Shown: piece after piece, positions 791 to 24,826 of the stretch | Numbering within the stretch: position 1 is the first letter of the stretch | Layout: every line of letters starts with the position of its first letter | The notes under the pieces: model-generated | Database searches by the model: none | Told to the model about the DNA's origin: nothing | What the model saw: only the letters and a program-made list of their open reading frames with translations | From: Candidatus Raymondbacteria bacterium RIFOXYA2_FULL_49_16 | GTDB lineage: Bacteria; Fibrobacterota; OXYB2-FULL-49-7; XYB2-FULL-49-35 | DNA: 64,000 nt | Assembly: GCA_001789205.1 (NCBI GenBank) | Contig: MFYT01000007.1 | Location: 3,848 to 67,847, forward strand | Direction: 5' to 3' | Translations under genes and position numbers: made by a program

Positions 791-2341
791 ATGACCTATC
801 AATTCATTATTTCCTGTATTCTTGTGGCAAGCGCCGTACACGCCTATGTCACCTTTGACGGCAAAACCGTGCCACCACTGCCACAAACAGCCAACGTGTA
901 TAATTGTACAACGGCGTTCCAGTTCCGCGCAGCCCTGAATACCCAGACTGCAAACAGGACCATTGTCCTGGCCAATGGCACCTATGCCATGGGCAACTAT
1001 GAATATCTGACCCTTACTGCGGACGGACTGACCATCAGAGGAGCGACGGACGATCCCAATGGCGTTGTAATAGTGGGAAAGGGCATGGATAATTGCGTGG
1101 ATGTTGAGGAAGAGATATTCAGGTTCGAAGGAGCGAACAACGTCACCATCGCCAACCTGACAATTTCTGAATGCCGTTGCAATGCGGTAAAATTTCAAAG
1201 CGGACCTAACGCCAATGTTATTTTACAGAACATCCATTTCCTCAATGTCGGCGAACGGATGATTAAGGGCCCCCACACTCTTGATGCCCAGGCATGCTCA
1301 ATACGCTACTGTCTCTTTGAAAATACACGGGTCCCGCCATCCATACGGTGTGGCGGCAGCACCGTTGATTCTAGCGGCGACTATATTGCCGGCATGGATA
1401 TTATGAACGCCGACAACTGGGTAGTACACGACAACTGTTTTTTAAATATCAAAGGCGCCACAGGACAGGGCCGCGCCGCCTGTTTTTTTTGGCATGGGGA
1501 TACAAACATAATCGTCGAAAGAAACACGTTCATTAACTGCGACAGGGCCATCAGCTATGGCAGCCCCGGCGGCGGCGACGGCACTACAATGGTTGTTGGA
1601 GGGTATATTCGGAACAATATGATTCTTGCGGGCGGAACAATCGGCATTGATTTAAATGGGTCTACAAACGTGAAAGTCTATAACAACACTTCCTTTTCTT
1701 CACTTGGCAGCTCAGGAGGCATCATTTCCAACCAAAACCAGGGTTGTGAAATAAAGAACAATATTCTTCTGGGCAGTATAACATACCTTGGTGAGGGCGA
1801 AGCTCCCGATACCGCGAAAAACGTATTTGTCTCACGTACCCAGAAAGCCATTATTGCACGTTGGTTTCAGGACGAGGCTAATGCCGATCTGCACTTGAAA
1901 ACTGATACTGCAAGCGTGGTGAATTGCGGGCTTAACTTGTCCGGTGTGACCAATGACTGGGACAATCTTCCACGCTCTGACGGCCAGACAGACATTGGCG
2001 CGGATGAGTACTCGAACAATCCAGCGGATATTGATGTGGCGGCTGTTGTATCGGGTAAAACATACCTGGGCAATCCAACGCCAAACCCGTTCAATCCATC
2101 CACACTCATCAGATATGGCATTTCGAACAACCGAAGCGGGGCTTTTATAACAATCACAATCATTTCACCGGATGGCAGGCGTATGAAAACCCTAGTAAAA
2201 CGCCATCAATTGGCTGGAAACTATGCCATTGTATGGGACGGGACCAATGAAATGGGGCACAAGGCCGCAAGCGGCATGTATTGTATCCGTCTTTCCACGG
2301 GCAGGGAAGTAATGACAACCAAAGCTGTGTTTATACAATAG
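791..2341 (+). CDS. secreted right-handed parallel beta-helix (pectate-lyase-fold) protein with T9SS-type C-terminal sorting domain
   Basis: 516 aa with an N-terminal signal-like segment (MTYQFIISCILVASAVHA). Repeated N/G-rich beta-helix turns (NVTIANLTI, NNMILAGG, NVKVYNN, IKNNILLG). Tail is [15 protein letters not shown]...GMYCIRLSTGREVMTTKAVFIQ. Confidence 0.75.
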   Translation: MTYQFIISCILVASAVHAYVTFDGKTVPPLPQTANVYNCTTAFQFRAALNTQTANRTIVLANGTYAMGNYEYLTLTADGLTIRGATDDPNGVVIVGKGMDNCVDVEEEIFRFEGANNVTIANLTISECRCNAVKFQSGPNANVILQNIHFLNVGERMIKGPHTLDAQACSIRYCLFENTRVPPSIRCGGSTVDSSGDYIAGMDIMNADNWVVHDNCFLNIKGATGQGRAACFFWHGDTNIIVERNTFINCDRAISYGSPGGGDGTTMVVGGYIRNNMILAGGTIGIDLNGSTNVKVYNNTSFSSLGSSGGIISNQNQGCEIKNNILLGSITYLGEGEAPDTAKNVFVSRTQKAIIARWFQDEANADLHLKTDTASVVNCGLNLSGVTNDWDNLPRSDGQTDIGADEYSNNPADIDVAAVVSGKTYLGNPTPNPFNPSTLIRYGISNNRSGAFITITIISPDGRRMKTLVKRHQLAGNYAIVWDGTNEMGHKAASGMYCIRLSTGREVMTTKAVFIQ

Positions 2342-2431
2342 TGAGGGTTTTCAAGTTCTTTTTTAGCTCGGTAAACGTGTAATGAGGAAAACGTATCAGT
2401 AGCGCTATGACAAGTCAACAGGGTGGGCAGT

Positions 2432-2736
2432 GAAATTGTTTTCTATAATATCAAAGGAGCGACAGGCGCGGGGTCAGGGGAGGTATTTTCTTTTGGGGCG
2501 GGAACCCTGGATACACCAACACTAACATGATTGTGGAACGGTGCACGTTCGTGGGGTGCGACAGGGCGATCTCCTATGGAAACACCTCAATAACATTGTT
2601 TTCGGCAATATAATCCATTTGTATTGCCAACGACCGGGTGGTATGGAACGCTGCTGGCATGGCAAGCGGTGTGTATGTATTGCGGATAAAAAGCGGGAAT
2701 CATGTATACACAAAAAGACTATTTTTGGCTCAATAA
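2432..2736 (+). pseudogene. decayed tandem paralog of the upstream beta-helix gene (frameshift, in-frame stop, large internal deletion)
   Basis: Frame 2 from 2432 reads EIVFYNIKGATGAGSGE. Frame 1 from 2461 reads GGIFFWGGNPGYTNTNMIVERCTFVGCDRAISYGN, then TAA at 2611-2613, then VVWNAAGMASGVYVLRIKSGNHVYTKRLFLAQ* ending at 2736. Compare the intact gene: NCFLNIKGATGQGRAACFFWHGDTNIIVERNTFINCDRAISYGS and IVWDGTNEMGHKAASGMYCIRLSTGREVMTTKAVFIQ*. Confidence 0.8.
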
Positions 2737-2951
2737 TGCATTGGCCAAGCCCCCGTCAGTTCCGTTGCGTTCTGCGGCGGAGCTGACTCTATTGTTTTCC
2801 TGGCGTATGGTCCAGAAGGATTGTATTGTTAATGAACAACTTCAAATGGACTGGTCCCTCTGTTTGTGTAGATAATTAATTGATATAAAACAAGATAGGA
2901 TAATACTAAGCCGTTTGGCCGGGCATTTTGTTTTTCCATTTGTAAAAACGC

Positions 2952-2979
2952 TCAAGCTTTTTCCGGATTGTTCCGATAT
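2952..2979 (+). promoter_or_regulatory. candidate sigma-28 (FliA) promoter of flagellin
   Basis: TCAAGCTT-N12-TCCGATAT compared with consensus TAAAGTTT-N11/12-GCCGATAA (6/8 and 6/8). It lies 88 nt upstream of the fliC ATG. Confidence 0.5.
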
Positions 2980-3011
2980 CTTTCCTGAAGGCAGCCCACT
3001 ATCGCTGCCTC

Positions 3012-3032
3012 GAAGGACAAAGGATGTCCTTC
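3012..3032 (+). promoter_or_regulatory. 5'UTR hairpin presenting GGA in its loop (CsrA-type site); a second GGA lies in the SD at 3056-3060
   Basis: GAAGGAC-AAAGGAT-GTCCTTC forms a perfect 7-bp stem with a 7-nt loop containing GGA. The Shine-Dalgarno GGAGG (3056-3060) carries the second GGA. Confidence 0.45.
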
Positions 3033-3066
3033 ATCAAGTACCAAACACAAAACATGGAGGTTTTGT

Positions 3067-3909
3067 ATGCGTATCAATCACAACATCAGCTCAATGATCA
3101 CGCAGGGTGCCCTGCGTCAGGTCAACAGGGACATGAACACTTCCCTGGAACGTCTTTCCACAGGTCTCCGTATCAATCGCGCCAGTGACGATGCTGCGGG
3201 TCTCAGCGTATCAGAACAAATGCGCACCCAGGTGCGCGGCATGCATCAGGCCAAATCGAACGCGCAGGACGGTATTGCCCTGCTCCAGATCGCTGAAGGA
3301 GCTGCGAACGAAATCGAATCAATGCTCCAGAGAATGCGTGAACTGGCTGTCCAATCGACCAATGACACGCTCACTACCACTGAACGCGCGTATACCAACC
3401 AGGAATACACCTCGCTCATGAGCGAAATCGACCGCATCACCAACGTAACCCAGTACAACACACAGACACTGCTCGATGGTCAGATCGGCTCTTTTGGCGC
3501 AACCGGCAGCGGATCGTGCATACTGCATATTGGTCCCAATTCCTCGTCCAATGATCAGTTCACGGTCACCATCAGCGGCACATCGATTGGCGCCATGGGT
3601 CTTACCAGCTCAAGCATTACCACGCAGATGCGCGCCAACAGCGCCCTTACCTCAATCGACGTCGCGCTCGGTTCGATCAACCAGCTGCGCAGCGATCTTG
3701 GCGCCTATGTCAACCGTCTCGAGCACGCCATCAACAACCTGGACAACCAGGAGCACAACACGCAGGCCGCCGAGTCATTGATACGCGATGTGGATTTCGC
3801 GTCAGAGACCTCGCAGTTCACGCGGAACCAGATCCTCACGCAATCGGCGACCGCCATGTTGGCCCAGGCCAACGCGATCCCGCAGAACGTGCTGACGCTG
3901 CTCCAGTAA
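3067..3909 (+). CDS. fliC: flagellin
   Basis: MRINHNISSMITQGALRQVN...LSTGLRINRASDDAAGLSVSEQMR at the N-terminus. C-terminal D0/D1 segment LGAYVNRLEHAINNL...NQILTQSATAMLAQANAIPQNVLTLLQ. 280 aa. Confidence 0.97.
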   Translation: MRINHNISSMITQGALRQVNRDMNTSLERLSTGLRINRASDDAAGLSVSEQMRTQVRGMHQAKSNAQDGIALLQIAEGAANEIESMLQRMRELAVQSTNDTLTTTERAYTNQEYTSLMSEIDRITNVTQYNTQTLLDGQIGSFGATGSGSCILHIGPNSSSNDQFTVTISGTSIGAMGLTSSSITTQMRANSALTSIDVALGSINQLRSDLGAYVNRLEHAINNLDNQEHNTQAAESLIRDVDFASETSQFTRNQILTQSATAMLAQANAIPQNVLTLLQ

Positions 3910-4001: not shown

Positions 4002-5393
4002 ATGGCATATGAAAAGATACTCGTCATTGCTCTGCACAAGCATGGCGATAATGTGCAGGTTACCCCGCTTTTCAAAGCGCTGAAAGAGCTCTATCCCGGA
4101 GCGCACCTGGCGTGCCTTGTTGAAAAAGGCTATTCTTTTGCCTTTGAGAACAACCCCCATATCGATGAAATGGTCCTCTTTGACCGGACCAATCCCGCGT
4201 TGGCGCGTCAATGCATCACGAACGGGGAATTTTCCCTGGTAATCAACCGCCAGAGCTCGGCAGAGGGCGCTGACCTGGCAAGCCTGGCGCGTTCAGCTAA
4301 GATACGGGGAGTGCACCTCGATGATACGGGAAGCATTGTCATTGACGATCCCTGGACCAGGCTCCTCTTTGCCCTGGTAAAAAACAGGCGTATCAATCCC
4401 TTCAACCTGGTCGATTATGGCCTGCATGTCGCGGGCGCTCATACGGGCGAACGGCGCCTCGATCTCTATTTTGATCCCCATACGGCTGACGCATATGCCG
4501 CATTGCTTCGTGCCAGGTCAGAGGGGCCGCTCCTTGCCGTACAGGCGGGGTCGCAGGCTGAATACCGGAAATGGCCGGCGCAGAGTTTTCTCCAGGCCAT
4601 TAAACGCCTGCTTCTGCGCGGTCCCTGCACTGTGGCGCTTCTCGGTTCATCGGAAGACTACCGCGCAAACCAGGAGATAGTGGCGGCAATACCTGGCCAT
4701 CTGCGCGCGCGGGTCATTGATACCTCGGGTATTGTGACCTTGCCCATGCTTCCGGCGCTGCTCAAAAAGTGCGGCCTTCTCATTACCAACGATACGGGTC
4801 CCATGCACATTGCGGCTGCTGCGGGTTGCAAGGTGCTGGCGCTCTATTTTGGCGGTTCGTTTCTTTCTGAAACCGGGCCTTATTCTCCGGGAAACCTCAT
4901 TTTATGCGGCCGCATGGATTGCCTGCCCTGCGCCTTTGGCCATGAGTGCAAAAAGGCGTATGCGTGCAAGGAAATGGTGTTGCCGGACCAGGTCGCTGAG
5001 CTTGCCGCCTATGGCGCGGGAATGGCTGATACGGTGAATGAGAAACTTTTTGCGCAGGGCATGGTTTATTGTTCGCCGCACAAGGCCTGGGACCAGCCCC
5101 TGGTCTATTTGCCCTTTTTCAGGACACGCCTTGGCAGCGATGAACTCACGCGCCTGGTACTCTACGGCGCCCTTTCTTCAGCACTGCTTCATACGCCAAT
5201 CGATGTCCGCGTTTTTGCCAGCCGGATTGCGGCCTGTTACACCAATGCCCGGCAAGCGTTCAACGCGCCTTTTTCCGTTCCATTGGACCTTTTCCATCCG
5301 GTGTTTCCCCATGCGGGCCATTTGGCCCAGTTTGGAAAGACGGTTGTTGAAACCATGGAAGCATTGCGTTCGGCCCTTGCCGCCGTTGCCTAG
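4002..5393 (+). CDS. glycosyltransferase family 9 (heptosyltransferase-like) with ~130 aa C-terminal extension
   Basis: ILVIALHKHGDNVQVTPLFKALKELYPGAHLACLVEK at the N-terminus. LLITNDTGPMHIAAAAGCKVLALYFG nucleotide-sugar motif and a CLPC...C cluster. Confidence 0.75.
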   Translation: MAYEKILVIALHKHGDNVQVTPLFKALKELYPGAHLACLVEKGYSFAFENNPHIDEMVLFDRTNPALARQCITNGEFSLVINRQSSAEGADLASLARSAKIRGVHLDDTGSIVIDDPWTRLLFALVKNRRINPFNLVDYGLHVAGAHTGERRLDLYFDPHTADAYAALLRARSEGPLLAVQAGSQAEYRKWPAQSFLQAIKRLLLRGPCTVALLGSSEDYRANQEIVAAIPGHLRARVIDTSGIVTLPMLPALLKKCGLLITNDTGPMHIAAAAGCKVLALYFGGSFLSETGPYSPGNLILCGRMDCLPCAFGHECKKAYACKEMVLPDQVAELAAYGAGMADTVNEKLFAQGMVYCSPHKAWDQPLVYLPFFRTRLGSDELTRLVLYGALSSALLHTPIDVRVFASRIAACYTNARQAFNAPFSVPLDLFHPVFPHAGHLAQFGKTVVETMEALRSALAAVA

Positions 5394-6357: not shown

Positions 6358-6894
6358 ATGAGGCTCTTTGTCGCGGCAGTGCCGGATGCAATGTGCCGTC
6401 AGCGGCTTTCTGAATACATTGGGCTGTGCGGCGCGTACCCAGACCTCCGGTGGACGCGGCCCGAGAACCTGCATTGCACACTTCTTTTTATCGGTGAGGT
6501 CCACGATGATCATGCGTCCCTTATCGACCAAGGTTTGCGCCAGGCATTGCGCGGTGTGCCAGCCCTCAGATGCGTACTGCGGATCACGGGGTTTTTCAAG
6601 AACAGGGAGGGTGCGGTCCTCTGGGTGGGTATTGAGCCTCCTGAACCGATTATGGATCTGGCCGCACGCATCAGGCAGGCGTGCCCCGGGTTTGGTGATG
6701 CCAAGCCTTTCAAACCGCATCTAACTATTGGCCGCGGTCAGGGCAGGAAGGACTGGAGAAAGATGATGAAACCCTTAGCCCCTCTCGCATGGCATATTGA
6801 CCGTATTTTTCTGCTCCAGAGCAGGCTTATGCCCGAGGGCGCGGTCTATACGGTTAATAGTGAGTTTACCCTTTCACAAATTGACCCCTTATGA
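6358..6894 (+). CDS. thpR: RNA 2',3'-cyclic phosphodiesterase (2H phosphoesterase, ThpR/LigT)
   Basis: Two H-x-T motifs are present: ENLHCTLLFIGEV and FKPHLTIGRG. 178 aa. Confidence 0.85.
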   Translation: MRLFVAAVPDAMCRQRLSEYIGLCGAYPDLRWTRPENLHCTLLFIGEVHDDHASLIDQGLRQALRGVPALRCVLRITGFFKNREGAVLWVGIEPPEPIMDLAARIRQACPGFGDAKPFKPHLTIGRGQGRKDWRKMMKPLAPLAWHIDRIFLLQSRLMPEGAVYTVNSEFTLSQIDPL

Positions 6895-6925
6895 AGTCAG
6901 ACATTATATTTTCTTTGTCGTACCT

Positions 6926-8572
6926 ATGATTAAAGAATTCGGCAAATATAGCATTGAAAAGGAATTGGGCAAAGGCGGTATGGCAACCGTCTATCTTGCC
7001 ATGCACCGCGACCTCTATCGCCATGTGGCGCTCAAGATAATGCATCCCCATCTTGCTTCCGAGGAGCAGTTCCGGGTGCGCTTCGAGCTTGAGGCGCGCG
7101 CCATTGCCCAGGTTGAACATATCAACCTTCTCCAGGTATATGATTATGGGAAACAGGGCGACCACTACTATATTGCCATGGAATACATCGATGGGGAAGA
7201 AGCGGAGCAGCTGGTAAAAAAACACGGTCCTTTTCCCGCGGAAGTGGCCGCGGTCGTGTTCCATGGCGTGGCAGCGGGGCTCAGCGAGGCGCACAAGAAG
7301 AAGATCATCCACCGCGACATCAAACTCTCCAATATCATTATAAAAAACGATGGTCTGGTCAAACTTTCTGATTTTGGCATTGTTAAAATGGAGGATGTGG
7401 CCGGTCTTACCAACACCCAGGATGTGGTGGGCACACCCTACTATGTCTCACCCGAACAGATCCGTGGTGACAAACCATCGGCCCAGTCCGATATCTTTTC
7501 TCTGGGCGTGTCCCTGTATTTCGCGGTAACGGGCAAGTTCCCCTTTACCGCGCCCACTATTCCAGCCATCTTCAATCTGATTTCCCAGGGAAATTATACG
7601 CCAGTCAGGGAGACCGGCATCTATGTGCCCGACGAGTTGGCGTTTGTCATCTCGAATTGCCTGGAAAAGGAGCCCCGGAAAAGGTACGACACTGTGGCAC
7701 GGGTGGCAGAGGAATTGAACGCCTTTCTTCACCGCCACGAAATTTCGAACGATAAAGACCTTGTCGAGAACTACCTAAAAGACCCCAAAGGCTTTGCCGC
7801 GGGTCTCAAGGTGCGGAGTATCACCACCAAAATCACCAGGGGCAAGTCCTTTCAGGAAAAAGGGCTGATTTTTGAGGCGCTCAAGGAATACGAATCCATT
7901 CTGCAGCTCGATCCCGGGAACAAAGAGGTCAAGGAGCATATTGTCCAAATCCGGCAGGCAAATCCAGTGACCCAAGACACCAGCGTGACCCTCGACACCA
8001 TCCTGGTGCCCAGGAGAAAAAAGACCGGCCTTATGGTCGCGGGAGTAGCGGCCTTTTTGCTGCTCTGCGTCATGGGCGCGGGCATCTATTATTCGCAGCA
8101 GCAACGCCAGCACGAGGCCGTACGTGCCCAGGAACGGTGGGACTCGCTTTCCGCCCTGCGCGAGATCGACACTATCATGTTTCCCGCGTTGCCCCGTCCT
8201 GAGGCAGTGGCAGTTGCGGCAAAAGCTCCTCCATCTGCTCCCAGAAAGGCGATGCAGAAAAAAATCATTGTCCCGGCCGATGCCAGGCCCGCACCTCTGG
8301 CCGAAGCCAAGGCCGATACCCCAACGGTCCAGCCGGCACAGCCTGCGCATGAGTGCTTTGGGTATCTTTTTGTTTTTTCTGAAGTATGGGCCACTATATT
8401 GCTTGATGAAAAAGATTATGGAAAATCGCCCACAAAAACCAAGATCAAAGTGCCCTGCGGCGAATATTCCCTGCGGCTCGAAAGCCCCGGAGGAAAACGG
8501 TACACTGCCCGTGCGGTGATTACCGAGGAACAGACCACCCGTTTCCAGGTGGGACAGGCAGATTTTCAATGA
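6926..8572 (+). CDS. membrane Ser/Thr protein kinase (Hanks type) with TPR-like segment, one TM helix and a PEGA-like C-terminal domain
   Basis: GKGGMATVYLA, VALKIM, HRDIKLSNIII, DFG and YYVSPEQ. TM helix MVAGVAAFLLLCVMGAGIYY. The start was moved from the track ORF (6797, overlapping thpR) to ATG 6926 just before the Gly-loop; an upstream TTG start cannot be excluded. Confidence 0.9.
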   Translation: MIKEFGKYSIEKELGKGGMATVYLAMHRDLYRHVALKIMHPHLASEEQFRVRFELEARAIAQVEHINLLQVYDYGKQGDHYYIAMEYIDGEEAEQLVKKHGPFPAEVAAVVFHGVAAGLSEAHKKKIIHRDIKLSNIIIKNDGLVKLSDFGIVKMEDVAGLTNTQDVVGTPYYVSPEQIRGDKPSAQSDIFSLGVSLYFAVTGKFPFTAPTIPAIFNLISQGNYTPVRETGIYVPDELAFVISNCLEKEPRKRYDTVARVAEELNAFLHRHEISNDKDLVENYLKDPKGFAAGLKVRSITTKITRGKSFQEKGLIFEALKEYESILQLDPGNKEVKEHIVQIRQANPVTQDTSVTLDTILVPRRKKTGLMVAGVAAFLLLCVMGAGIYYSQQQRQHEAVRAQERWDSLSALREIDTIMFPALPRPEAVAVAAKAPPSAPRKAMQKKIIVPADARPAPLAEAKADTPTVQPAQPAHECFGYLFVFSEVWATILLDEKDYGKSPTKTKIKVPCGEYSLRLESPGGKRYTARAVITEEQTTRFQVGQADFQ

Positions 8573-9258
8573 AGATATTTCAGGCAATTGTTTGTACTGT
8601 GCTGTTCGCGTCCGTCGCGTCCTGGGCGCAGGAATCCCCGGCCTTCGAGGAAGAACGCTGCTTTGACCATTACCGGCAGGGTGAATACGAACGCGTTGTC
8701 GATTGTCTCAACAGCTTCCTGTATACCGCAACCACCACTGATACCGCGCGGCTCATTGCGGCGTATGAATATCTCGGTGTGTGCCTCATGATGGTCGATA
8801 AGAAGCTTCCTGCGCGCGCGGCATTTGACAAGCTCCTGGGCATGGACGCCGATTACGAACTGAACCCCAATAAATACCTTCCCGAGGTAATTTCGCTTTT
8901 CCAGATAGCAAAGTTCGAAAAAAAGACCTCCCTGCGCGTTATGATAGTCGATTCCATGCCCGCCTATTCCGCGGTTTTCAACCTCATTCCAGGCGGCGCG
9001 CCCCAATATATGAACGGCGAGAAGAAGAAGGCGTTCCTGCTTGGCGTAACAAGCATCGCCTCGCTTGCGCTCTCCATCTATGCCTATACCCGGGAATCAT
9101 CGTTTGAATCCGGCACGTACGGGTATAGGGAAGAGGACGTGGCAAAGGCGCGACGGTATCATGTCATGCACCAGATTTCAGTCACCGTTTTTCTTGGCGG
9201 GTATCTCTATGGCATCATTGACGGGTTTGTCAACAAGCGTATTGTGGTCAAGCAGTAA
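8569..9258 (+). CDS. hypothetical exported/membrane protein (signal peptide, TPR-like region, 2 TM helices)
   Basis: MKIFQAIVCTVLFASVASWAQ signal peptide. ATGA start/stop overlap with the kinase. No catalytic motif recognised. Confidence 0.6.
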   Translation: MKIFQAIVCTVLFASVASWAQESPAFEEERCFDHYRQGEYERVVDCLNSFLYTATTTDTARLIAAYEYLGVCLMMVDKKLPARAAFDKLLGMDADYELNPNKYLPEVISLFQIAKFEKKTSLRVMIVDSMPAYSAVFNLIPGGAPQYMNGEKKKAFLLGVTSIASLALSIYAYTRESSFESGTYGYREEDVAKARRYHVMHQISVTVFLGGYLYGIIDGFVNKRIVVKQ

Positions 9259-9267
9259 GGAGTTTGC

Positions 9268-11292
9268 GTGGCGCGTATCGTGGTGACTAAAGCCGGCAAG
9301 GAGCTTTTCAGGCATGAGATCAGGAAAAAACTGGTCTCCATAGGCCGCTCTCCCCAGTGCGATATCGTTCTTGCCGAGGCCGATGTCTCTTCGCTCCACG
9401 CCAATGTGCTTGGGCTCAGAGACGGCTACCAGCTGGTCGACCTCGACAGCACCAACGGCACACAGGTCAATGGCGCTCCGGTCACCGAACAGACGCTCAG
9501 GCATGCCATGGTTTTTTCCATAGGGCAATTCGCGCTCAGGTTCGAGGAGGCGCCTGCGGCCGCTGAAGGCGTCACGGCCTTGTTCCCTGGCGCGGACAGC
9601 CTGCGCGAAAGTAGCGATTTGCTCAAAACCATCCGCTATTCCCATCTCTCACATATCGCCCAGGCGAACAAAGGCGCGGGCATTGCCCTCGAACGGTCGC
9701 TTACCGATCTTGAGGCTGCCATTGCGTCGGCTGAACGGTCCAACGCCCAGCTTGCCATTCTTTTTGAACTTGCGGAAGCCATCAACTCCGCAAAGGGATA
9801 TACCGTCATACTCGAAATCATCCTTGAAAAAGCCCTTTTAGCAACAGGCATGGAGCGCGGCGCTGTGGTGCTCTACACTGCCGAAGCCGCGCTCGAACCA
9901 GTCGCTTCCGTGGGCATGGAGCAGGATGTGGCTGATAAAAATGCCTTTGTCATGAGCCATAGTATCATCAACAAGGCCATTGAGGCGGACCAGCCCCTGG
10001 TGGTGGCCGACACCCATGCAACTTCTGAATTCAACGCGGCCAGTAGCATTGTAACGCAGGGCATAAAAAGTTCTATCTGCCTGCCGCTGAAAAGCAGGAG
10101 CAGAAAAATGCTGGGCGGCCTGTATCTCGACAGCAGGTTTGCTTCCATGCATCCGGACAATACGCGTCCTGAATTTCTGCGCATCTTCAGCATTTTCACG
10201 GCCACGGCCATTGAGACGCGCCAGGCGGCCCAGCGTGAAAAAGAAATGGCGGAGGAGCTTGCCGCAGCGCGCGAACGGGAAAAATACAACCGCCGGCTCC
10301 AGGAACTGGAACAGGAAAACAAGCGGCTGGTGAAAAAGGCGGGCGCAAACCGCAGACACGATGTGCTGGGAGAAAGTCCCGCCATACGCAACCTTTTTGA
10401 CATGGTCGAAAAGGTCGCGCCCACGGACGTTCCCCTTCTGCTCACGGGCGAAACAGGCACGGGAAAAAGCCTCTTGGCAAAATTCATTCACGATTTTTCA
10501 GAGCGCAGGCAGGCCGAATGCGTGATCATCGACTGCGCCTCCATTCCTTCGGAACTGCTTGAGTCCGAGCTTTTCGGATACGAAAAGGGCGCCTTTACCG
10601 GCGCCGCTGCTCAGAAAAAGGGCAAAATAGAAACCGCGGACAATGGCACTCTTTTTCTCGACGAGATCGGCGACATGCCGCTTGCGCTCCAGGCCAAGAT
10701 GCTCCGTTTTCTCCAGGACCGCCAATTTGAGCGCGTGGGCGGTACCAAGACTATTTCCATCAACGTGCGCATCATTGCCGCTTCCAATAAAGATTTGAAA
10801 AACGCGGTTTCCCTCAAACTCTTCAGGGAAGATCTCTTTTACCGGCTCTGCGGGGTCACGCTCGATATGCCGCCGCTGCGCGAGCGGGGAGAAGACATCC
10901 TGATCATGGCGAGCTCCTTCCTGAACGAAGTGGCAACGCGGAACAGTCTTACCATCAAGGGGTTTACTCCCGAGGCGCGCAACCTGGTGCTTGCCTACGC
11001 ATGGCCCGGCAATGTCCGGGAGCTGCGGAATGTGGTCCAGCGGGCCGCCATTTTGTGCAAAGGTGAATTCATTGAGCCGGACGACCTTGGACTCGATAGC
11101 GCGGGCATAGACCGGAAAAAGGAACAGACGCTCAAAGAAGCGCGCGACGAAGTGGATAAAAAGGTTGTTCAACAGCAGCTTATTGAACAAAAAGGGAACC
11201 TTTCCAAAGTGGCCCGCATTCTCGATCTTGATCGGGGCACGTTACGCGAACTTATAAAAAAGCATAATCTGTCCCTGCAGGAGGAACCGTGA
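9268..11292 (+). CDS. sigma-54-dependent transcriptional activator with N-terminal FHA and central GAF domains
   Basis: FHA segment LVSIGRSPQCDIVLAEADVSSLHANV...DLDSTNGTQVNG. AAA+ segment LLLTGETGTGKSLLAKFIH, with the GAFTGA loop (YEKGAFTGA) and DEIGDMPLALQAKMLRFLQ. C-terminal HTH GNLSKVARILDLDRGTLRELIKKH. GTG start. Confidence 0.92.
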   Translation: MARIVVTKAGKELFRHEIRKKLVSIGRSPQCDIVLAEADVSSLHANVLGLRDGYQLVDLDSTNGTQVNGAPVTEQTLRHAMVFSIGQFALRFEEAPAAAEGVTALFPGADSLRESSDLLKTIRYSHLSHIAQANKGAGIALERSLTDLEAAIASAERSNAQLAILFELAEAINSAKGYTVILEIILEKALLATGMERGAVVLYTAEAALEPVASVGMEQDVADKNAFVMSHSIINKAIEADQPLVVADTHATSEFNAASSIVTQGIKSSICLPLKSRSRKMLGGLYLDSRFASMHPDNTRPEFLRIFSIFTATAIETRQAAQREKEMAEELAAAREREKYNRRLQELEQENKRLVKKAGANRRHDVLGESPAIRNLFDMVEKVAPTDVPLLLTGETGTGKSLLAKFIHDFSERRQAECVIIDCASIPSELLESELFGYEKGAFTGAAAQKKGKIETADNGTLFLDEIGDMPLALQAKMLRFLQDRQFERVGGTKTISINVRIIAASNKDLKNAVSLKLFREDLFYRLCGVTLDMPPLRERGEDILIMASSFLNEVATRNSLTIKGFTPEARNLVLAYAWPGNVRELRNVVQRAAILCKGEFIEPDDLGLDSAGIDRKKEQTLKEARDEVDKKVVQQQLIEQKGNLSKVARILDLDRGTLRELIKKHNLSLQEEP

Positions 11293-12620
11293 AGCGCTGG
11301 AAGAAACCCGGTATGGCCGCTGTTTTAGTCATTGCTCTTGCATTGGCCGCTGGGTGCGGGTATTTCGAATCAGCCATTACCCCCATTGAGGCTGGACAGA
11401 CCCAGCTTGAGGGCCGGGTGGTTGACGCTCTTTCGCGCCAGGGCGTTCCGGGCGCAATCATTACGCTGAGTGGCAAGAACGATACTACGGTAATCAGCGG
11501 AGAGGGAGGGACGTTTCGGTTCCCCTATGCGGCAACAGGGAAAAAATCGCTCCAGGTCAGCGCGCCAGGATACAATCCCTTTGCCCTTGAAACAGATCTT
11601 ACACTCGACCTTAATGATATAGATTCACTCTTTCTTGTCCGCACCAACAATCCCCCGCTTTTTATCAGCGCGCTCTATCCGTTGTCAAACGAGCAGGAGG
11701 TGCCGCTTACCCTGCAGTTCAGTTTTGCGGTTGCAGATTCTGATTTTGCCCGCGATTATACCTGTGAAGCGCTCTCTTTTTCCTTCTATTTTGGCGACTT
11801 TCAGCCGCCGGCGCTTGTATTTCAGGGCAGGGTCGACACGTTGGCCTCTCGTCTGTATGGCCGGCACCCAGGCTTTAATTCGTATATTATCAATGCTCCC
11901 GATACCGCGCTTGCGCTTACGGCCGGGCAAACCTATTTCTGGAAACTTGTGATCAGCGACACGCTGGGTGATTCAGTGGTCCATGGAATAGACTCCTTTG
12001 TTACCCGGTCGAGTTTTGATTCGACGTGTCCGCAAGAGATGGCGCTTGTAGAAATGGAGACGCTTTCATTCTGCATGGACAAATATGAATTCACAAATGC
12101 GGATTACGAGGAATTTGACACGCTCTATACCAGCGCTGACTACCGGTGGTATTCCCAACGCACTGACGGTCCGGTGATCTTCAAGAGCTGGCAAGATGCA
12201 CGCCAAGCATGCCAATCGCTGGGGAAAAGGCTTTGTACCATGAGCGAGTGGGAGGCCGCAAGCAGTGGATACCAGCGGTGGAACTATCCCTATGGGCCAG
12301 TGTACGACTCTTCAAAATGCAATACAGAGCTTCTCGATACCACTCAGAACCCTTTTAATGGATCTGCCCAGGCCGTGGGTGACAAGCCTGACTGTGTTTC
12401 GTGGGCAGGTATCTACGATTTATCAGGGAATGTTGAAGAATGGATTATGCTAAGTAAGAATATGCCGTTTCAATTTGACCAGAATACCGGACTGCAGGTT
12501 TATTCTTATATTGGCGGTTTTTGGGGTAGTAGCGAACGGGCGACATCGTTCAGCGTAAAAACAACCAGTTATAACTACAATGATTTCATAGGGTTCAGAT
12601 GTTGTAAAGATATTGAATGA
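11289..12620 (+). CDS. lipoprotein with carboxypeptidase-regulatory-like domain and C-terminal FGE/SUMF1 (sulfatase-modifying-factor fold) domain
   Basis: Lipobox LALAAGC. LEGRVVDALSRQGVPGAIITLSG. DCVSWAGIYDLSGNVEEWI, GGFWGSS and a terminal IGFRCCK. GTG start overlapping the activator stop by 4 nt. Confidence 0.75.
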   Translation: MKRWKKPGMAAVLVIALALAAGCGYFESAITPIEAGQTQLEGRVVDALSRQGVPGAIITLSGKNDTTVISGEGGTFRFPYAATGKKSLQVSAPGYNPFALETDLTLDLNDIDSLFLVRTNNPPLFISALYPLSNEQEVPLTLQFSFAVADSDFARDYTCEALSFSFYFGDFQPPALVFQGRVDTLASRLYGRHPGFNSYIINAPDTALALTAGQTYFWKLVISDTLGDSVVHGIDSFVTRSSFDSTCPQEMALVEMETLSFCMDKYEFTNADYEEFDTLYTSADYRWYSQRTDGPVIFKSWQDARQACQSLGKRLCTMSEWEAASSGYQRWNYPYGPVYDSSKCNTELLDTTQNPFNGSAQAVGDKPDCVSWAGIYDLSGNVEEWIMLSKNMPFQFDQNTGLQVYSYIGGFWGSSERATSFSVKTTSYNYNDFIGFRCCKDIE

Positions 12621-12625
12621 TAAAT

Positions 12626-12646
12626 GATGGTGAAAATTTCACCATC
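12626..12646. promoter_or_regulatory. perfect palindrome GATGGTGAAA-A-TTTCACCATC; candidate enhancer (UAS) half of a pair, or terminator hairpin of the upstream operon
   Basis: 10+10 nt perfect dyad beginning 6 nt after the stop at 12620. Its centre is ~115 bp upstream of the -24 GG at 12750. Confidence 0.45.
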
Positions 12647-12655
12647 TGTCCTTAT

Positions 12656-12677
12656 TTGATGGTGGAAAAACCATCAA
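12656..12677. promoter_or_regulatory. inverted repeat TTGATGGT-N6-ACCATCAA; candidate enhancer (UAS) site
   Basis: Perfect 8+8 dyad sharing the GATGGT/ACCATC half-site with 12626-12646. Its centre is ~84 bp upstream of the -24 GG. Confidence 0.45.
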
Positions 12678-12748
12678 GAAATCATGAAACGCTTTGTGAT
12701 ATAAGTTATAAGCCAATAAAAAACAGCATCTTATATTAATTAATGTTT

Positions 12749-12764
12749 TGGCATGGAAAATGCT
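12749..12764 (+). promoter_or_regulatory. candidate sigma-54 (-24/-12) promoter
   Basis: TGGCATGGAAAATGCT compared with TGGCAC-N5-TTGCW. GG (12750-51) and GC (12762-63) are in the canonical register. Confidence 0.55.
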
Positions 12765-12788
12765 CTATTAATCTTTGAGAAGATAATT

Positions 12789-14177
12789 ATGAACTGGAAA
12801 GCAAAATTAATAATTTCGCTCGTTGAAGCAGCAGGTTTCTGTCTGCCGCTTTTTGCGGGCGGAAACTATAGTCCAACCCCAAGGGAGTTGGAAGCTTTCA
12901 GGAACCTCTATACTGGTGTCACGCAATGGCCTGTGTGGAAAATCAGCAACAGCCGGATTGCATTGGATGGCAAGCTGGACGAGGTTGAATGGCAGCATGC
13001 ACAGAAGATATATCTCACTGGTGAGAAAATGTGGAACGACAAATTTTACTCGCACCCCTTTCTCTGGACTGGCCTCAAAGATTTTATCGCTGTCTGGCGT
13101 TTCCTGTACGATGCCCAGTATTTATACATTTCGTGCGAATTTTTCGATAATTTCCACAGCGAAGGCGATAAAAGCAGCGATGGCGCGCTTGCCACCGAAC
13201 CCTGGTGGTTCAACGATGCAGTGGAAATCGCCCTGCTTCCCTCGATTCCCGCACAAATGGGAAGTACTCCGCTTGCGATAAACTGGGCCCAGCATATGGT
13301 GCAGTTCACCAGGAAATTCACTGGTGAAATCGGTCTTGTGGGCAATATTTGGGGTGCCAGGGTCCCGGCTGAGCCATACGATACTGAAGGCAATTGGCTC
13401 ACGGTCCCCGAGGGCAGTGATATCATCGCGGGCATTGAAACCCGGGCCCTGCCGCATCCCGATATCGTGCGTCTTTTCGCATATCCCGGGGCTTGGTGCA
13501 TGGAAATACGCATTCCCTTTGCCGGCATATTTCCCGAAAAAGGCAATGGGTTCATACCGCCTACGGGAAGTGTCTTTAAAATGAATCCTTCCATTTGCGA
13601 TGATGACAATCTGCTGCGAGCGCCCGATGACAATACTTCTCACCGGATCGACATGGACCGGTTTAAAGTCGATTCCCTTGCCTGGTGGGGAGCAATAAAT
13701 GCCAGCGATACCGCCCTGTTCAATAGCTGGAGAAATCCCGCCTTTTTTCCCACATTTGCCTTTGCTGGTCTGCGCAATGGTACATCTGTTTGGGAAAAAA
13801 TGCCCGATGAATTAAACCTCTATTGCGGCGCCACCCCGGCCAAATATGAGGAAATTATTTTGACCGCTACTTCCGTTGAAGCCGGAAATGGCGCGTTTCC
13901 CGCCGCACCAGCGCTGCATGTGTCTCCCAATCCTTTTGCTTCCAGTGCGGCAATCACCTTCTCCGTGCCAAAACGCAGCGTAGTCAGTCTCAAGGTATTT
14001 GATCTGTCAGGCGCTTTGGTAGGCGATCTTGGCAACGCGACCTATGCGGCGGGTACGCATACTGTCCTGTGGAACGGTAAAACAATACACAACCTTCAGG
14101 CCGCTCCTGCGGTGTATCTGGTCCGTCTGAACACAGGCTTCCAGATACTTATAAAAAGAATAACAATAGCCCGGTAG
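12789..14177 (+). CDS. secreted CBM9/DOMON-like carbohydrate-binding protein with T9SS-type C-terminal sorting domain
   Basis: IALDGKLDEVEWQHAQKI...AVWRFLYDAQYLYISCEFFD is CBM9-like. Tail is VSPNPFASSAAITFSVP...VYLVRLNTGFQILIKRITIAR. Start set at ATG 12789 (MNWKAKLIISLVEAAGFCLPLFAG, signal-like), because the first ATG (12753) lies inside the -24 promoter element. Confidence 0.7.
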   Translation: MNWKAKLIISLVEAAGFCLPLFAGGNYSPTPRELEAFRNLYTGVTQWPVWKISNSRIALDGKLDEVEWQHAQKIYLTGEKMWNDKFYSHPFLWTGLKDFIAVWRFLYDAQYLYISCEFFDNFHSEGDKSSDGALATEPWWFNDAVEIALLPSIPAQMGSTPLAINWAQHMVQFTRKFTGEIGLVGNIWGARVPAEPYDTEGNWLTVPEGSDIIAGIETRALPHPDIVRLFAYPGAWCMEIRIPFAGIFPEKGNGFIPPTGSVFKMNPSICDDDNLLRAPDDNTSHRIDMDRFKVDSLAWWGAINASDTALFNSWRNPAFFPTFAFAGLRNGTSVWEKMPDELNLYCGATPAKYEEIILTATSVEAGNGAFPAAPALHVSPNPFASSAAITFSVPKRSVVSLKVFDLSGALVGDLGNATYAAGTHTVLWNGKTIHNLQAAPAVYLVRLNTGFQILIKRITIAR

Positions 14178-17924: not shown

Positions 17925-19073
17925 CTACGGCAGAAATGTCTTAGAGTGCTTCAGCTTGTACGGCAGGTATTCGTCCATCACATAGTTGAGCGTATGGGCC
18001 GCAAAGGCCTGTTGCTCGGCGCGTACGCCCATTTCAATCAACTGATTAATGGCTTTTTGCCATTCTTTGTGGTGTTTGAAGAAGGGATCATTTTTCAGCG
18101 CATCCTTTGCCCGCTTAATGTCCACTTCCTGCAATGGATGCGTGGGAAGCTTAAAATCTTTGATGTCCTGTGGCGTAACCCCTAGGTATTGCGCATGGGG
18201 TACGCAAAAGAACCTGTTGATGTGCGCCGCGTTTCCCGAACCAACCTTGAGAGTACGGTATATATTGGAAAAACCGTAGGGGTCGCAGTCAACAAACGCG
18301 TAGACCGGGAGTTTGCATTGTTCTGACAGTCTGCGGACAAACCGCCGGGTTGCCCGGGTGGGTACGCCGCCCAGCGAAACCAGGATGCAGTTGGCTTTTG
18401 CCCAGTATTTATGGCTTTGGAGCCGCTGAAAAATACCGCCAGTCTCAATCGCCAGGACGAATTTCGCCTTGGTCTCGAATTTCAAGTGTTCATTCAGGCT
18501 GGGAATGGAGTAGGCGCCCGATCCAAAGCGTGTACAATCGATTTTCTCGATTTTCCCGCTTTCAAGGTCTTTGTCGTATACGATGAGCTTGCCCGCAACC
18601 GCACCGCCATGCTCTTCCGGAATAAATCTGAGTTGTTCGCGTGATACTTCGTATATAGAGAACATGGCCTCAATATCATCCATGACCGTGTCCGACTCTT
18701 CCTGCTCGTCAAATCGCGCCTCTTCCCAGTTTTTTGACTGGTAATACGCGTCCCTCTTTGTGGCAAAGTCATTTGTTTCAATAAGGCCTTTTGAGAGCGA
18801 CATCATGCGCAGGGTCTGGGCAAAGGGTTTTACCGTGCTTACCGAAAGCGTGCGTGATTTTTTTTGGTTCAGGATCTTAAAAAAGCCCTCGGCAGCGTCG
18901 TATCTTACATTGGAAAGCGCGCGCAGGGGGAAATAGAGCGAGGGCGTGGTTTTTTTCAAGATTTTACCATGGATATCTGACGCGGTTTTTTTAATATATC
19001 CGACAATTTGTTTGTCGTTGATCTCGGGTCTGATGTCCAATGTTATCTTACGTTCCTGCTTTTTTGGACTCAT
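17925..19073 (-). CDS. top6A: DNA topoisomerase VI subunit A (Spo11/Top6A)
   Basis: KRDAYYQS (catalytic Tyr position). Toprim motifs FVLAIETGG and [10 protein letters not shown]. 382 aa. ATGA overlap with top6B. Confidence 0.9.
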
Positions 19074-20656
19074 ATGGCCCTCTTTTTCTCAAGCACTTCG
19101 GTGAGGGTGGTTACAGCCCGTTTCACCTCTTTTTCATTCAGGCCAAGGATGTCCTTGAGCGCAATACCGATCTGAGGGATATAGGTCTGGATGTAATTTA
19201 TTTTTTGGAGCGCATCGGCCACTCGCCGTTTGTGGCTTATGTGGGCGGAAATTTTTCTGCCGCACTCCTGGAGAGCCAGGCGCATCTCCTTGATGACCTC
19301 ATCATAGCTGGCAATAGCTTCTTTGCTCTCCGAAGTGAAAGGCACCCAAACCGACGCCATATGCACCATGATAACCAGGGGACCGGAAGGCAGGGCGCCT
19401 CGCGCCTGATCGAGACCGTAGTTTTTCCAGTCAATGCCCTGCACAGTTTTGAAAATGGCGCAGGCAGACTGCTGGTAGAGGAGGGGAACGCGGTTGGCAA
19501 ACCTGAATACCTGGGCAAGCTCGTCACCCGGCAGTTTTCCCCCATAGGCAATCCCCGCCTCTATCTGGAATGGGTTGCCGCGGTATACGGAAGGCGGTCT
19601 GGTCGTTGCCACGAATATCTCAGCTTCAACTTGCTGTTTGAGTCCGCTGACAATAAGATCCTCGCCAATGGGCGAAATGCAGTCAGTGGGTGGGTTCATT
19701 ATTTTTACTTTTTGTATGGCCCTGAATAAATTGTCAGCCTCTTTGAGTGCAATGGCCTTGGGCGATGCGTTGGGATTCAGGTTCGCGGCAGCGCATATTT
19801 CCCCTGCTACCTTTGAGCTTACACGCGAAAAGTCTGACTGTAACGCGCCTTTGAGCGCGCGTGAGTTGGTGGTTTTGAGCATCTTCATGAGCATACCCAA
19901 TTCAACGCCATATGGATGCGGCTTGATCTCCTTTGGCGGAAGCGGCAGCTGTTTTACACTCCGGATATATTCTGCCTTTTCCTCCCCGGTAAGCAGTTGG
20001 AGAGTATAGGTGATGGAAACGTGCGGGTTGGCAATGGCTGTCTGGCGGACATATTCGTCAACCGATGAACGGCCCTTTTGGTATCTTCCTTCCAACTCGA
20101 TTTCAACCAGAGTGCCGTGGTCTTTTGGCCAGTCCATCTCAATATCACGCAGAATTTCTGGTTTGTTTTGGGTTGTATTCAGATGCAGATGGTAATGGTG
20201 CGCGGGTTTGCCTTTGCCTATTTTCGAGGTTATCTTAATTGGCTGGCCTGTTGTAAGCTGCCCGTACATGCCGGCCGCTGAAATACCAATGCCCTGTTGG
20301 CCCCGTGACATCTTCATTGAATGGAATTTTGAACCGTAGAGCAGTTTGGCAAAGATATTGGGTATCTGGTTTTTAACAATGCCAGGACCGTTGTCTTCCA
20401 CAGACATTGAAAAGCGATCTTCGCTCAATTCTTTGAGGGTAACCGTGAGATCAGGTAGAATGCCAGCTTCTTCGCATGCGTCGAGGGAATTGTCCACGGC
20501 CTCTTTGACAGCGGTCAGAAGCGCGCGGCGCGGGTTGTCGAATCCGAGTAAATGCCTGTTTTTGGAGAAAAATTCAGAAACAGAGATGGTCCTCTGTTTC
20601 TCCGCCATTTGTTCCGCGTCAGCGTAGACGTTTTTCTGTTTCTTAGGCACCGGCAT
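19070..20656 (-). CDS. top6B: DNA topoisomerase VI subunit B (GHKL ATPase)
   Basis: Bergerat-fold boxes [19 protein letters not shown] and [11 protein letters not shown], with a transducer-length C-terminus. 528 aa. Confidence 0.9.
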
Positions 20657-22759: not shown

Positions 22760-24826
22760 ATGAGACAATGCGTCCTTTCCCTGTTTTTGCTTTCATCCAT
22801 CGCATGCGCAGGCGGGTTAACAGGTCATACGGGAACAAATATCGACATCTACTGCGCGGAATTCACTCCTGAAATGGTCACGTATCTTAAAACCCTGAAT
22901 GCCAAGTGGAACCTCAATAGCGGATGGAGCAAATACCGGACTATAACGTTTGGTAACAGCATCACGGTTGACGGCAATCACTGGTCGCCGCTTGCGAATA
23001 ACGTCACCGGTATTGCGAACGCCACGGACATCAACGCATTCAAGGATTCCACCATCAACCTGGGTACATGGATAGCAAACGGCAAGGTCGCGGAGAGCGG
23101 TCGCACTATACAATGGGTCTCCAAACAGGTCGCCTCAGCGCTTTCAAACCGCAAGCCCATGTTTGCGGTGATAATGATAGGCACCAACGATATTTCCATC
23201 AGCCATCCGCCTGCCGACCAATGCGAACCGTCGAATGACTGTTGGGGAGATACGGTGCATTACAAACAAATCACCGACCAGCTTATCAATGTTGGCGTCA
23301 TTCCTATTATAACCACCATTCCTCCAATCGATTTTTCGCTTATGGGCAATGCGTCAAACAGGGAACCCGCGTTGAGGGCATACAACAATAATCTCCGAAC
23401 CTTTGCTGAAAACCACAAGTTCCCTCTCATCGATCTCCACCGGTGGAGCGATGACCACGGTCCTGTATCAGCCCTTTTAGGCGATTGGGCGCATCCGTCT
23501 GGATGTAGCGACGGATCAGCCAGCTTTTCCGACAATTGCCTTGACGGTGGTTCGTCCGGCGGGCTTCAAAACGTGCGTAACTATATGATTATTATGGCTG
23601 TTAACGACTTGATACGATATGTGGTTTTTAACGAACCTGTTCCGGTGGACACTATTCCCCCCGGTGTTGTTACAAACCTTTCCGCAATAACCGGCGCGGG
23701 CAATGGAACAGTGGTTCTTTCCTGGACCGCTCCTGGCAGTGACAGTACCGGCGGCCGGTATGTCCGGTCCCTTGATATACGATATTCGCAGAGCAATATA
23801 ACAGAGCAAAATTTTTCTTCTCTTCCCAGACTGCCTAACATTCCCAAGCCGGTCTTGTCCGGCACCTTGCAAAGCATGAACGTCCTCAATCTCACTCCGG
23901 GACAAACCTATTATTTTGCCATGAAGGCCGCGGACCGTACCGATACCAGCGCTCTCTCCAATGTAGCGAGCGTGCAGGCCAGGTCTGGACTGCCGCTGGT
24001 GAAGGACAGCGTACGCCTCGATGCCTATCAGGATACTTATTTCAAAAAGAACGAAACCGACAACAAGGGCGGCCTTGCTTGGCTTTCGCTCAGTTCAGCA
24101 TATAATGGAATCACCTATTTGCGTTTCGATATGTCCGTCTGTACAAAAATGCCCGATTCAGCGGTCATTGTTTTGCAGCCCTGTGAATGGGGCGCCACCA
24201 CGTTCCAATACACGACAGTGATCCGGCCCGTGACCAAAGCCATGACCGAAGACGCCTTTTTTGCAGGAGGGCCCATTGCCTTCTGGCTAGGAAACGCCTT
24301 GGAATATCCTTCAGCATCATATACAGGCCCCTATAACGGCCAGACCAAGTACTATTTTCCCGTTGCGCGTGAAGCCATTCAGATGTATGCGCAGGGAACG
24401 GCCTATGGCCTTGCCATTATCAATACAGACAGCGCCAATGCGGCCAATCAGTTCTGGAGCAAGGACCGGGGGGCCGCTGAAAGTCCCTATATGATAGTGT
24501 ATTCGGGATTGGACAATGTTTCCGCCGAACAGCCGGATGACTTTTCCGTTGGTCCGGCAATACTCACAGTCATGCCCAATCCATTCAATCCGTCAACTAC
24601 AATAACGATTTCGAATTGCAAGTCGCACATTGCGGAAGAGGAATTGAAAATATACAACGTTAAAGGGGAAATGGTTGACGATTTGTCCTTATTGATTAAC
24701 AACGCAGAATTTCCAATTCGTAATTCCATCATATGGGATGCGTCCCGCCGGCAAAGCGGCGTGTATGTTGTCAAGGCAAAGATTGGTGGCCAGGTTCTGA
24801 CAAAGACAATTACGTTTCTTAAATAA
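22760..24826 (+). CDS. secreted SGNH/GDSL-type hydrolase with Fn3-like and beta-rich middle domains and T9SS-type C-terminal sorting domain
   Basis: Signal peptide [23 protein letters not shown] blocks [15 protein letters not shown] and GDWAHPSG. Tail is [14 protein letters not shown]...[22 protein letters not shown]. Confidence 0.75.

Follow-up and report, generated by a model that had tools for sequence, protein, structure and literature searches.

How is the gene for a secreted CBM9-like protein controlled in the 64 kb stretch of DNA analyzed here (the window)? The gene is preceded by a gap of 168 bases (12621–12788) with a G+C content of 29%, compared to 50% across the window. An initial annotation had placed in this gap a sigma-54 promoter and two upstream dyads acting as enhancer sites; both dyads, the -24/-12 element and the two candidate ATG codons were found exactly at its coordinates. 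We consider it likely that the gap is the sigma-54 control region of the CBM9-like gene, a predicted T9SS (type IX secretion system) cargo gene, and that it is bound most likely by an FHA-GAF activator encoded upstream. The features of the promoter and its target are as follows.

12749–12764, + strand: sigma-54 type -24/-12 element, TGGCAT-GGAAA-ATGCT (TGGCATGGAAAATGCT), with GG at 12750–51 and GC at 12762–63
12774–12776, + strand: predicted transcription start, 11–13 nt past the -12 GC, from sigma-54 promoter geometry
12777–12782, + strand: Shine-Dalgarno-like GAGAAG, 6 nt 5′ of ATG 12789; orthologues have AGAGG or GGAGG equally far from their start codons
12789–14177, + strand: target gene, CBM9-like secreted protein of 462 aa (474 aa from ATG 12753), from Pfam and orthologue alignment

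The -24/-12 element fits the consensus TGGCAC-N5-TTGCW at 9 of 11 positions, and its GG and GC are exactly 10 bp apart. The simpler pattern TGGCA-N7-TGC is found three times in the window vs 2.9 expected, and the promoter match alone is therefore not significant. The two remaining matches fall within the open reading frames (ORFs) 40257–42344 and 35177–39280, which are probably fusA and rpoB or rpoC, judging from their place in a ribosomal-protein cluster.

For comparison, upstream DNA was obtained for 14 family genes: those of the window, L001, L002, L083, L084, L164, L165, L166 (two tandem copies), L167, L168, L170, L171, and L172. Loci were reached by three routes, through homologues of the target protein, through orthologues of the FGE-like protein encoded upstream of it, and through species-representative genomes. 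L002 and L172 are short contigs of 2.5 and 3.3 kb, and all loci bearing an organism name are Fibrobacterota metagenome-assembled genomes. The target protein is rare and its family small: when 1.84 billion representatives were searched exhaustively with a profile, ∼22 full-length clusters were recovered, the remaining matches spanning only the C-terminal Ig-like domain. A word-indexed search with the target protein gave two real homologues; no further relatives were found in the word-indexed protein database with a profile of 9 family members, or in genome contigs scanned with the single target protein. For the ten family genes compared, the proteins are pairwise 28–43% identical. Thus, conservation of non-coding DNA by mere descent would be unexpected.

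Nine of the first 10 upstream regions have a best match of at least 9/11 to TGGCAC-N5-TTGCW, and three later loci add the elements TGGCATGATTTATGCT (L168), TGGCACGAAATCTGCT (L170), and GGGCACGGGTTATGCT (L172). Overall, 12 of the 14 family genes, at 28–41% protein identity, carry a -24/-12 element, with the -12 GC located 22–42 nt 5′ of the start codon, in AT-rich DNA that is otherwise unalignable between loci. The spacers vary (GGAAA, GGTTT, AAATT, AGTTA, GTAAA, GATTT, GAAAT, GGGTT) while GG and GC are constant, as would be expected under functional constraint. A matrix trained on eight orthologous promoters, with the window left out, scored the element at 12749 with 25.2 bits. This is the top score in the window, where the runner-up on either strand reaches 12.9 bits, and it exceeds the highest score of 200 block shuffles (21.5 bits). 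Phylogenetic footprinting and the cross-validated matrices thus support the assignment of 12749–12764 as a real, evolutionarily conserved sigma-54 promoter, as the initial annotation had suggested.

Transcription from sigma-54 promoters starts ∼11–13 nt after the -12 GC. The first ATG of the target ORF (12753) lies inside the -24 element and upstream of the transcription start predicted in this way. The N-termini of the orthologues align from 12789, which is also the ATG that the Shine-Dalgarno-like GAGAAG precedes. These observations support ATG 12789 rather than 12753 as the true start, in agreement with the earlier proposal. P0001, the protein in the database, is longer by 12 residues at its N-terminus, so the automatic annotation appears to have used the wrong start, ATG 12753. 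The description of the product as a CBM9-like protein with a T9SS-type tail agrees with the Pfam matches in the family: CBM9_1 is found in 7 of 9 members along with FlgD_ig or Por_Secre_tail, and the window protein matches both CBM9_1 and Por_Secre_tail weakly. Its C-terminus is an Ig-like T9SS-type sorting domain, the only confident part of a structure prediction that was poor for the protein as a whole (mean pLDDT, the per-residue confidence score, of 49).

The two dyads lie between the upstream gene and the promoter. Dyad 1, GATGGTGAAA-A-TTTCACCATC, is located at 12626–12646, 6 nt past the TGA stop codon of the FGE-like gene, and dyad 2, TTGATGGT-GGAAAA-ACCATCAA, at 12656–12677. The pattern GATGGT-N0-20-ACCATC occurs twice in the window vs 0.06 expected, and two occurrences were reached in none of 100 shuffles. 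Palindrome-constrained expectation maximization was run on eight regions from outside the window, each reaching from the upstream stop codon to the -24 element, and returned TGGTGGAAaTTCCACCA at widths 15–21. The conserved unit is a fixed 17-bp 7-3-7 dyad, TGGTGRA-N3-TYCACCA. The two highest scores of the resulting matrix in the window are the following upstream activating sequence (UAS) sites.

12660–12676, no strand assigned: proximal UAS site, TGGTGGA-AAA-ACCATCA (TGGTGGAAAAACCATCA), 21.4 bits, best in the 64 kb window; within dyad 2
12628–12644, no strand assigned: distal UAS site, TGGTGAA-AAT-TTCACCA (TGGTGAAAATTTCACCA), 20.3 bits, second in the 64 kb window; 17-bp core of dyad 1

In block shuffles the maximum score of this matrix had a mean of 13.5 bits and a 95th percentile of 17.7 bits. 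As a motif learned without the window ranks both dyads at the top, the dyads are best described as instances of a conserved motif. Two weaker matches were rejected: the third-ranked one, at 12144 inside the FGE-like gene, which at 14.5 bits is at chance level (0.4 matches of at least 14.5 bits per shuffled window), and one at 9219 (12.1 bits), which is within chance expectation.

The 17-bp register changes the half-site that had been proposed. GATGGT/ACCATC arms separated by N9 in dyad 1 but by N6 in dyad 2 did not hold up as the conserved unit, since the 17-bp register fits all loci at fixed spacing. The GATGGT/ACCATC arms are flanks of the core in dyad 1 and a 3-nt shifted overlap (TGA-TGG-TGG-A) in dyad 2, where the perfect N6 palindrome lies 1.5 bp out of the 17-bp register. 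In this register the centers are at 12636 and 12668, i.e., 32 bp apart and 114 and 82 bp 5′ of the -24 GG; in the earlier register they were at 12636 and 12666.5, ∼114 and 83.5 bp from the GG. The distances from the -24 element given earlier are correct for the earlier register; the spacing of ∼30 bp becomes 32 bp in the conserved register. The spacing itself recurs among the loci, measured center to center:

Window: 32 bp
L001: 33 bp
L002: 32 bp
L083: 32 bp
L084: 32 bp
L170: 32 bp
L172: 32 bp
L166b: 33 bp, weak partner (9.1 bits)
L164: 30 bp, weak partner (4.3 bits)

Seven loci have two clear sites 32–33 bp apart. By eye, L165 and L168 also show a weak partner, too low in score to be listed, exactly 32 bp from the scored site, in L168 on its upstream side. 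The held-out loci gave two scored sites with a promoter in L170 and L172, and one scored site with a promoter in L168. Across loci the proximal centers are located 58–89 bp and the distal centers 90–121 bp from the -24 GG. The UAS of enhancer-binding proteins are dyads roughly 60–150 bp 5′ of the -24/-12 element, often in tandem and on the same face of the helix. The window dyads share this layout, being tandem, dyad-symmetric and 114 and 82 bp from the GG. Both the motif trained on orthologues and the spacing therefore agree with the earlier suggestion and support the two dyads as conserved enhancer sites. In 5 of 9 loci (window 12722–12728; L001, L165, and L166b among them) the stretch from the UAS to the -24 element also contains an AAAACAG heptamer. 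Its recurrence is not above the shuffle null, and its position relative to the promoter varies.

Four genes upstream of the gap bear on the question of which protein binds the dyads.

6927–8572, + strand: Ser/Thr protein kinase with C-terminal PEGA and one predicted membrane span, from Pfam and translation; ORF 6797–8572, probable start ATG 6927
8569–9258, + strand: conserved protein of 229 aa, between kinase and activator
9268–11292, + strand: candidate activator, FHA - GAF - Sigma54_activat - AAA_lid - HTH_8 (Fis-type), from Pfam
11289–12620, + strand: CarboxypepD_reg and FGE-sulfatase-like protein, from Pfam; TGA stop at 12618–12620

The FHA-GAF-AAA+-HTH architecture assigned earlier to 9268–11292, HTH denoting a helix-turn-helix, was recovered in the Pfam domains (PF00158 at 5e-68, HTH_8 at 7e-7) and in the motifs of the protein. 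It has GAFTGA at residue 441, the Walker A motif GETGTGKS and the Walker B motif LFLDEIGD; with these intact, the activator looks competent to act on sigma-54. Its HTH, with the consensus NLSKxARxLDxDRGTLRELMKKY, is kept in nine orthologues, recognition helix included, in step with the motif. The activator is encoded in cis with a promoter-bearing target gene in the window, L001, L083, L084, L164, and L165. From this synteny and the conservation of the HTH, the cis-encoded FHA-GAF activator is most likely the protein that binds the dyads.

The order kinase, small protein, activator, FGE-like gene is complete in L001 and L163. L164 and L165 have the same order on contigs that end at or before the position of the kinase, where L165 keeps a gene fragment, and the activator adjoins the FGE-like gene in L083, L084, L085, and L167. 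In the window the start of the FGE-like gene overlaps the stop codon of the activator gene and no promoter of its own is present. L163 has, at 4784–4865 within the 88-nt gap between its activator and FGE-like genes, the strong UAS site TGGCGGAAAATCCCCCA (20.5 bits) and the -24/-12 element CGGCACGGAATATGCT, and in L166 the -24/-12 element GGGCATGTTTATTGCA (434–449) is located 5′ of the FGE-like gene. These promoters suggest that the FGE-like gene belongs to the same regulon in some genomes. Cys23 is invariant in the FGE-like protein and is read as its lipoprotein cysteine. The 229-aa protein has no Pfam match, and its orthologues give faint TPR hits. The genes 3′ of the target encode Nramp and creatininase proteins and are unrelated. 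Covariance models of Rfam at the gathering threshold found only five tRNAs in the window and nothing in 12600–12800. An ORF on the + strand at 6358–6894 ends 33 nt 5′ of the likely kinase start and may be the first gene of the operon. By eye, its HLTIGRG resembles the HxTx motif of 2H (LigT-like) phosphoesterases.

Several observations weigh against the reading of the gap as a sigma-54 control region served by this activator. In L083 GA replaces GC at -12, and neither a -24/-12 element nor UAS sites were found in L167 or upstream of the family gene of L171 (1–356), the most distant homologue. No rpoN was found when all six frames of the window and of 168 fetched loci (1.5 Mb) were searched for the RpoN box; the one indirect hint of sigma-54 is the intact GAFTGA activator. 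Proximal site and promoter are separated by 58–89 bp, depending on the locus, without strict helical phasing. Dyad 1 is a fair hairpin of -11.8 kcal/mol with 7 T in the following 12 nt. In L167 (3418–3677) the activator and FGE-like genes lie directly upstream of a CBM9-like gene that has no site or promoter. The negative rpoN search, the two loci without an element and the chance frequency of the simple TGGCA-N7-TGC pattern would fit a fortuitous -24/-12 match, transcription coming from a sigma-70/sigma-A promoter or by read-through from the upstream operon. This appears very improbable: GG-N10-GC near the start codon is kept in 12 of the 14 family genes, the cross-validated score lies above all 200 shuffles, and a sigma-70 scan of 12621–12788 found no promoter-like site on the + strand. 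The hairpin of dyad 1 could instead point to intrinsic terminators that end the kinase-activator-FGE operon, the dyads not being protein-binding sites. Dyad 1 begins 6 nt behind the stop codon and, having 4 GC pairs and a T-rich tail, is picked up on both strands by a permissive terminator scan; dyad 2 folds at -10.5 kcal/mol. For the orthologous sites, however, the folding energies are only -1.3 to -9.7 kcal/mol and U-tracts are absent, and L001, L084, and L165 share an asymmetric TGAGGGG-TTT-YYCAxCx form that barely pairs. What is conserved is the TGGTG...CACCA sequence in the fixed 17-bp register and the 32-bp spacing. Separate GC-rich terminators are found 5′ of the sites in L002 (-22.6 kcal/mol, with a T-run) and L170, and a GC-rich hairpin was seen by eye 5′ of the site in L163 as well. 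In L002 and L172 the upstream gene is not FGE-like, yet sites and promoter are kept, whereas L085 and L003, with an FGE-like gene but no CBM9-like neighbor, have neither. Among the loci compared, the sites travel with the promoter rather than with the end of the upstream gene. As they follow the promoter and form poor hairpins in the orthologues, a terminator role would be secondary at most, and we regard the terminator reading as improbable. The caveat of the initial annotation that dyad 1 might be a terminator is thus largely answered by the weak orthologous hairpins and the separate terminators, although dyad 1 could still have a minor terminator role in this genome.

Promoter and sites may also be real and the dyads bound by a different enhancer-binding protein, or by a repressor, instead of the activator encoded in cis. 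No activator gene is present in the neighborhood shown of L002 and L172, a second pair of FHA protein and kinase is encoded in the window (61888–64000), and L167 has the activator in cis with a CBM9-like gene that lacks site and promoter. The contigs of L002 and L172 are, however, so short that an activator gene could lie just outside. The activator gene adjoins the regulated gene in the window and in L001, L083, L084, L164, and L165, the UAS site of L163 abuts the activator stop codon, and conservation of the activator HTH tracks the conserved motif. On balance a different binder is unlikely.

For the sigma-54 control region with the FHA-GAF activator as its binder, we propose the following mechanism. 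Sigma-54 RNA polymerase would bind TGGCAT-N5-ATGCT (12749–12764) as a closed complex. The dyads at 12628–12644 and 12660–12676, 32 bp or about three helical turns apart, would seed the oligomerization of an enhancer-binding protein, which most likely is the FHA-GAF-AAA+-HTH activator (9268–11292); the oligomer would loop to the promoter and open it with ATP. Transcription would then start from ∼12775 and translation from ATG 12789. The presence of an FHA domain and a co-operonic membrane Ser/Thr kinase suggests a phospho-threonine input; the kinase (6927–8572) is the likely upstream signaling partner of the FHA domain and would presumably set the activity of the activator through it. A ligand of the GAF domain would presumably be a second input.

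The layout, a promoter with tandem 17-bp enhancers three turns apart, is classical for sigma-54, and the mechanism itself is textbook and unsurprising. The analysis provides a precise regulatory map with promoter, enhancer motif, corrected start codon and candidate activator, and it links Ser/Thr-kinase/FHA signaling to sigma-54 control of a predicted type IX secretion cargo. With the 17-bp motif, further members of the regulon can be sought in Fibrobacterota genomes. More speculatively, and with rather less than even confidence, the five-gene cluster of membrane kinase with PEGA, small TPR-like protein, FHA-GAF activator, predicted FGE-like lipoprotein and CBM9-like cargo gene could be a self-contained, lineage-specific signaling circuit of uncultured Fibrobacterota. 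An extracytoplasmic signal from the envelope or from polysaccharide would lead to threonine phosphorylation and act through FHA on one secreted protein, by way of an undescribed 17-bp enhancer, TGGTGRA-N3-TYCACCA. Such a circuit might include feedback on its sensor by the secreted cargo and by the FGE-like protein.

At glnAp2 of enteric bacteria, which is activated by NtrC, a sigma-54 promoter is combined with two strong NtrC sites, TGCACCA-N3-TGGTGCA. This appears to be the system closest to our locus. Both have a GG-N10-GC promoter, two 17-bp 7-3-7 dyads ∼32 bp apart and roughly 100 bp upstream, and an AAA+ activator with a C-terminal Fis-type HTH. In contrast to glnAp2, the order of the half-sites is reversed here (TGGTG...CACCA), the predicted target is a secreted T9SS cargo and not a nitrogen-assimilation gene, and FHA and GAF inputs replace the receiver domain. 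A Ser/Thr kinase rather than a histidine kinase is therefore the likely input.

To our knowledge, coupling of Ser/Thr kinases and FHA domains to sigma-54 is known so far mainly from Myxococcus, with other targets. A phospho-threonine input for the FHA-domain enhancer-binding proteins of Myxococcus xanthus was reportedly proposed by Jelsbak, Givskov and Kaiser in 2005. These proteins reportedly share with the candidate activator an FHA domain at the N-terminus, joined to a sigma-54 AAA+ module and an HTH, an architecture that implies a link of Ser/Thr kinase signaling to sigma-54 transcription. Our locus differs from them in phylum, its relatives being Fibrobacterota metagenome-assembled genomes, and in its additional GAF domain. 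It further differs in the single, fixed and conserved cluster that unites the genes for kinase, activator, FGE-like protein and target, and in that the binding motif comes from sequence comparison and not from experiment. The work of Jelsbak, Givskov and Kaiser (2005, PNAS 102:3010) is cited in PMC11980068 as reference 53. Francke et al. (2011; PMC3162934) described sigma-54 as controlling the exterior of the bacterial cell, and a predicted target that is secreted or at the cell surface fits this general theme. The text of that paper contains 0 occurrences of Fibrobacter and 0 of FHA, and in the literature searched for sigma-54 or rpoN in Fibrobacter and Fibrobacterota, no paper on regulation by this factor in the phylum turned up.

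Some other features of the window are related to secretion and to phospho-threonine signaling. Three more proteins with Por_Secre_tail or FlgD_ig are encoded on the + strand, a protein of unknown function (17–778), a beta-helix protein (791–2341), and a GDSL lipase with fn3 (22760–24826), so that the genome appears rich in T9SS-type cargo. These three genes have no match to the UAS or sigma-54 matrices. The second FHA-domain protein is encoded at 61888–62688 (+ strand), followed from 62685 by the second Ser/Thr kinase, which runs off the window; phospho-threonine signaling seems to be used repeatedly in this genome.

Adjacent topoisomerase VI genes are located at 17925–20656 on the - strand, encoding subunit A (TOP6A-Spo11 Toprim, 4e-60) and subunit B (Topo-VIb_trans, 4e-61). 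Topoisomerase VI is typical of archaea and plants and uncommon in bacteria. A flagellin gene is found at 3067–3909 (+ strand; Flagellin_N 4e-43, Flagellin_C 6e-28), behind a gap of 725 nt without a long ORF (2341–3066). Fibrobacter itself is non-motile, which would make a flagellin gene remarkable in a Fibrobacterota relative, if the organism is one. Inspection by eye showed a sigma-28-like TCAAG-N16-CCGATAT 5′ of the flagellin gene at ∼2951–2978.

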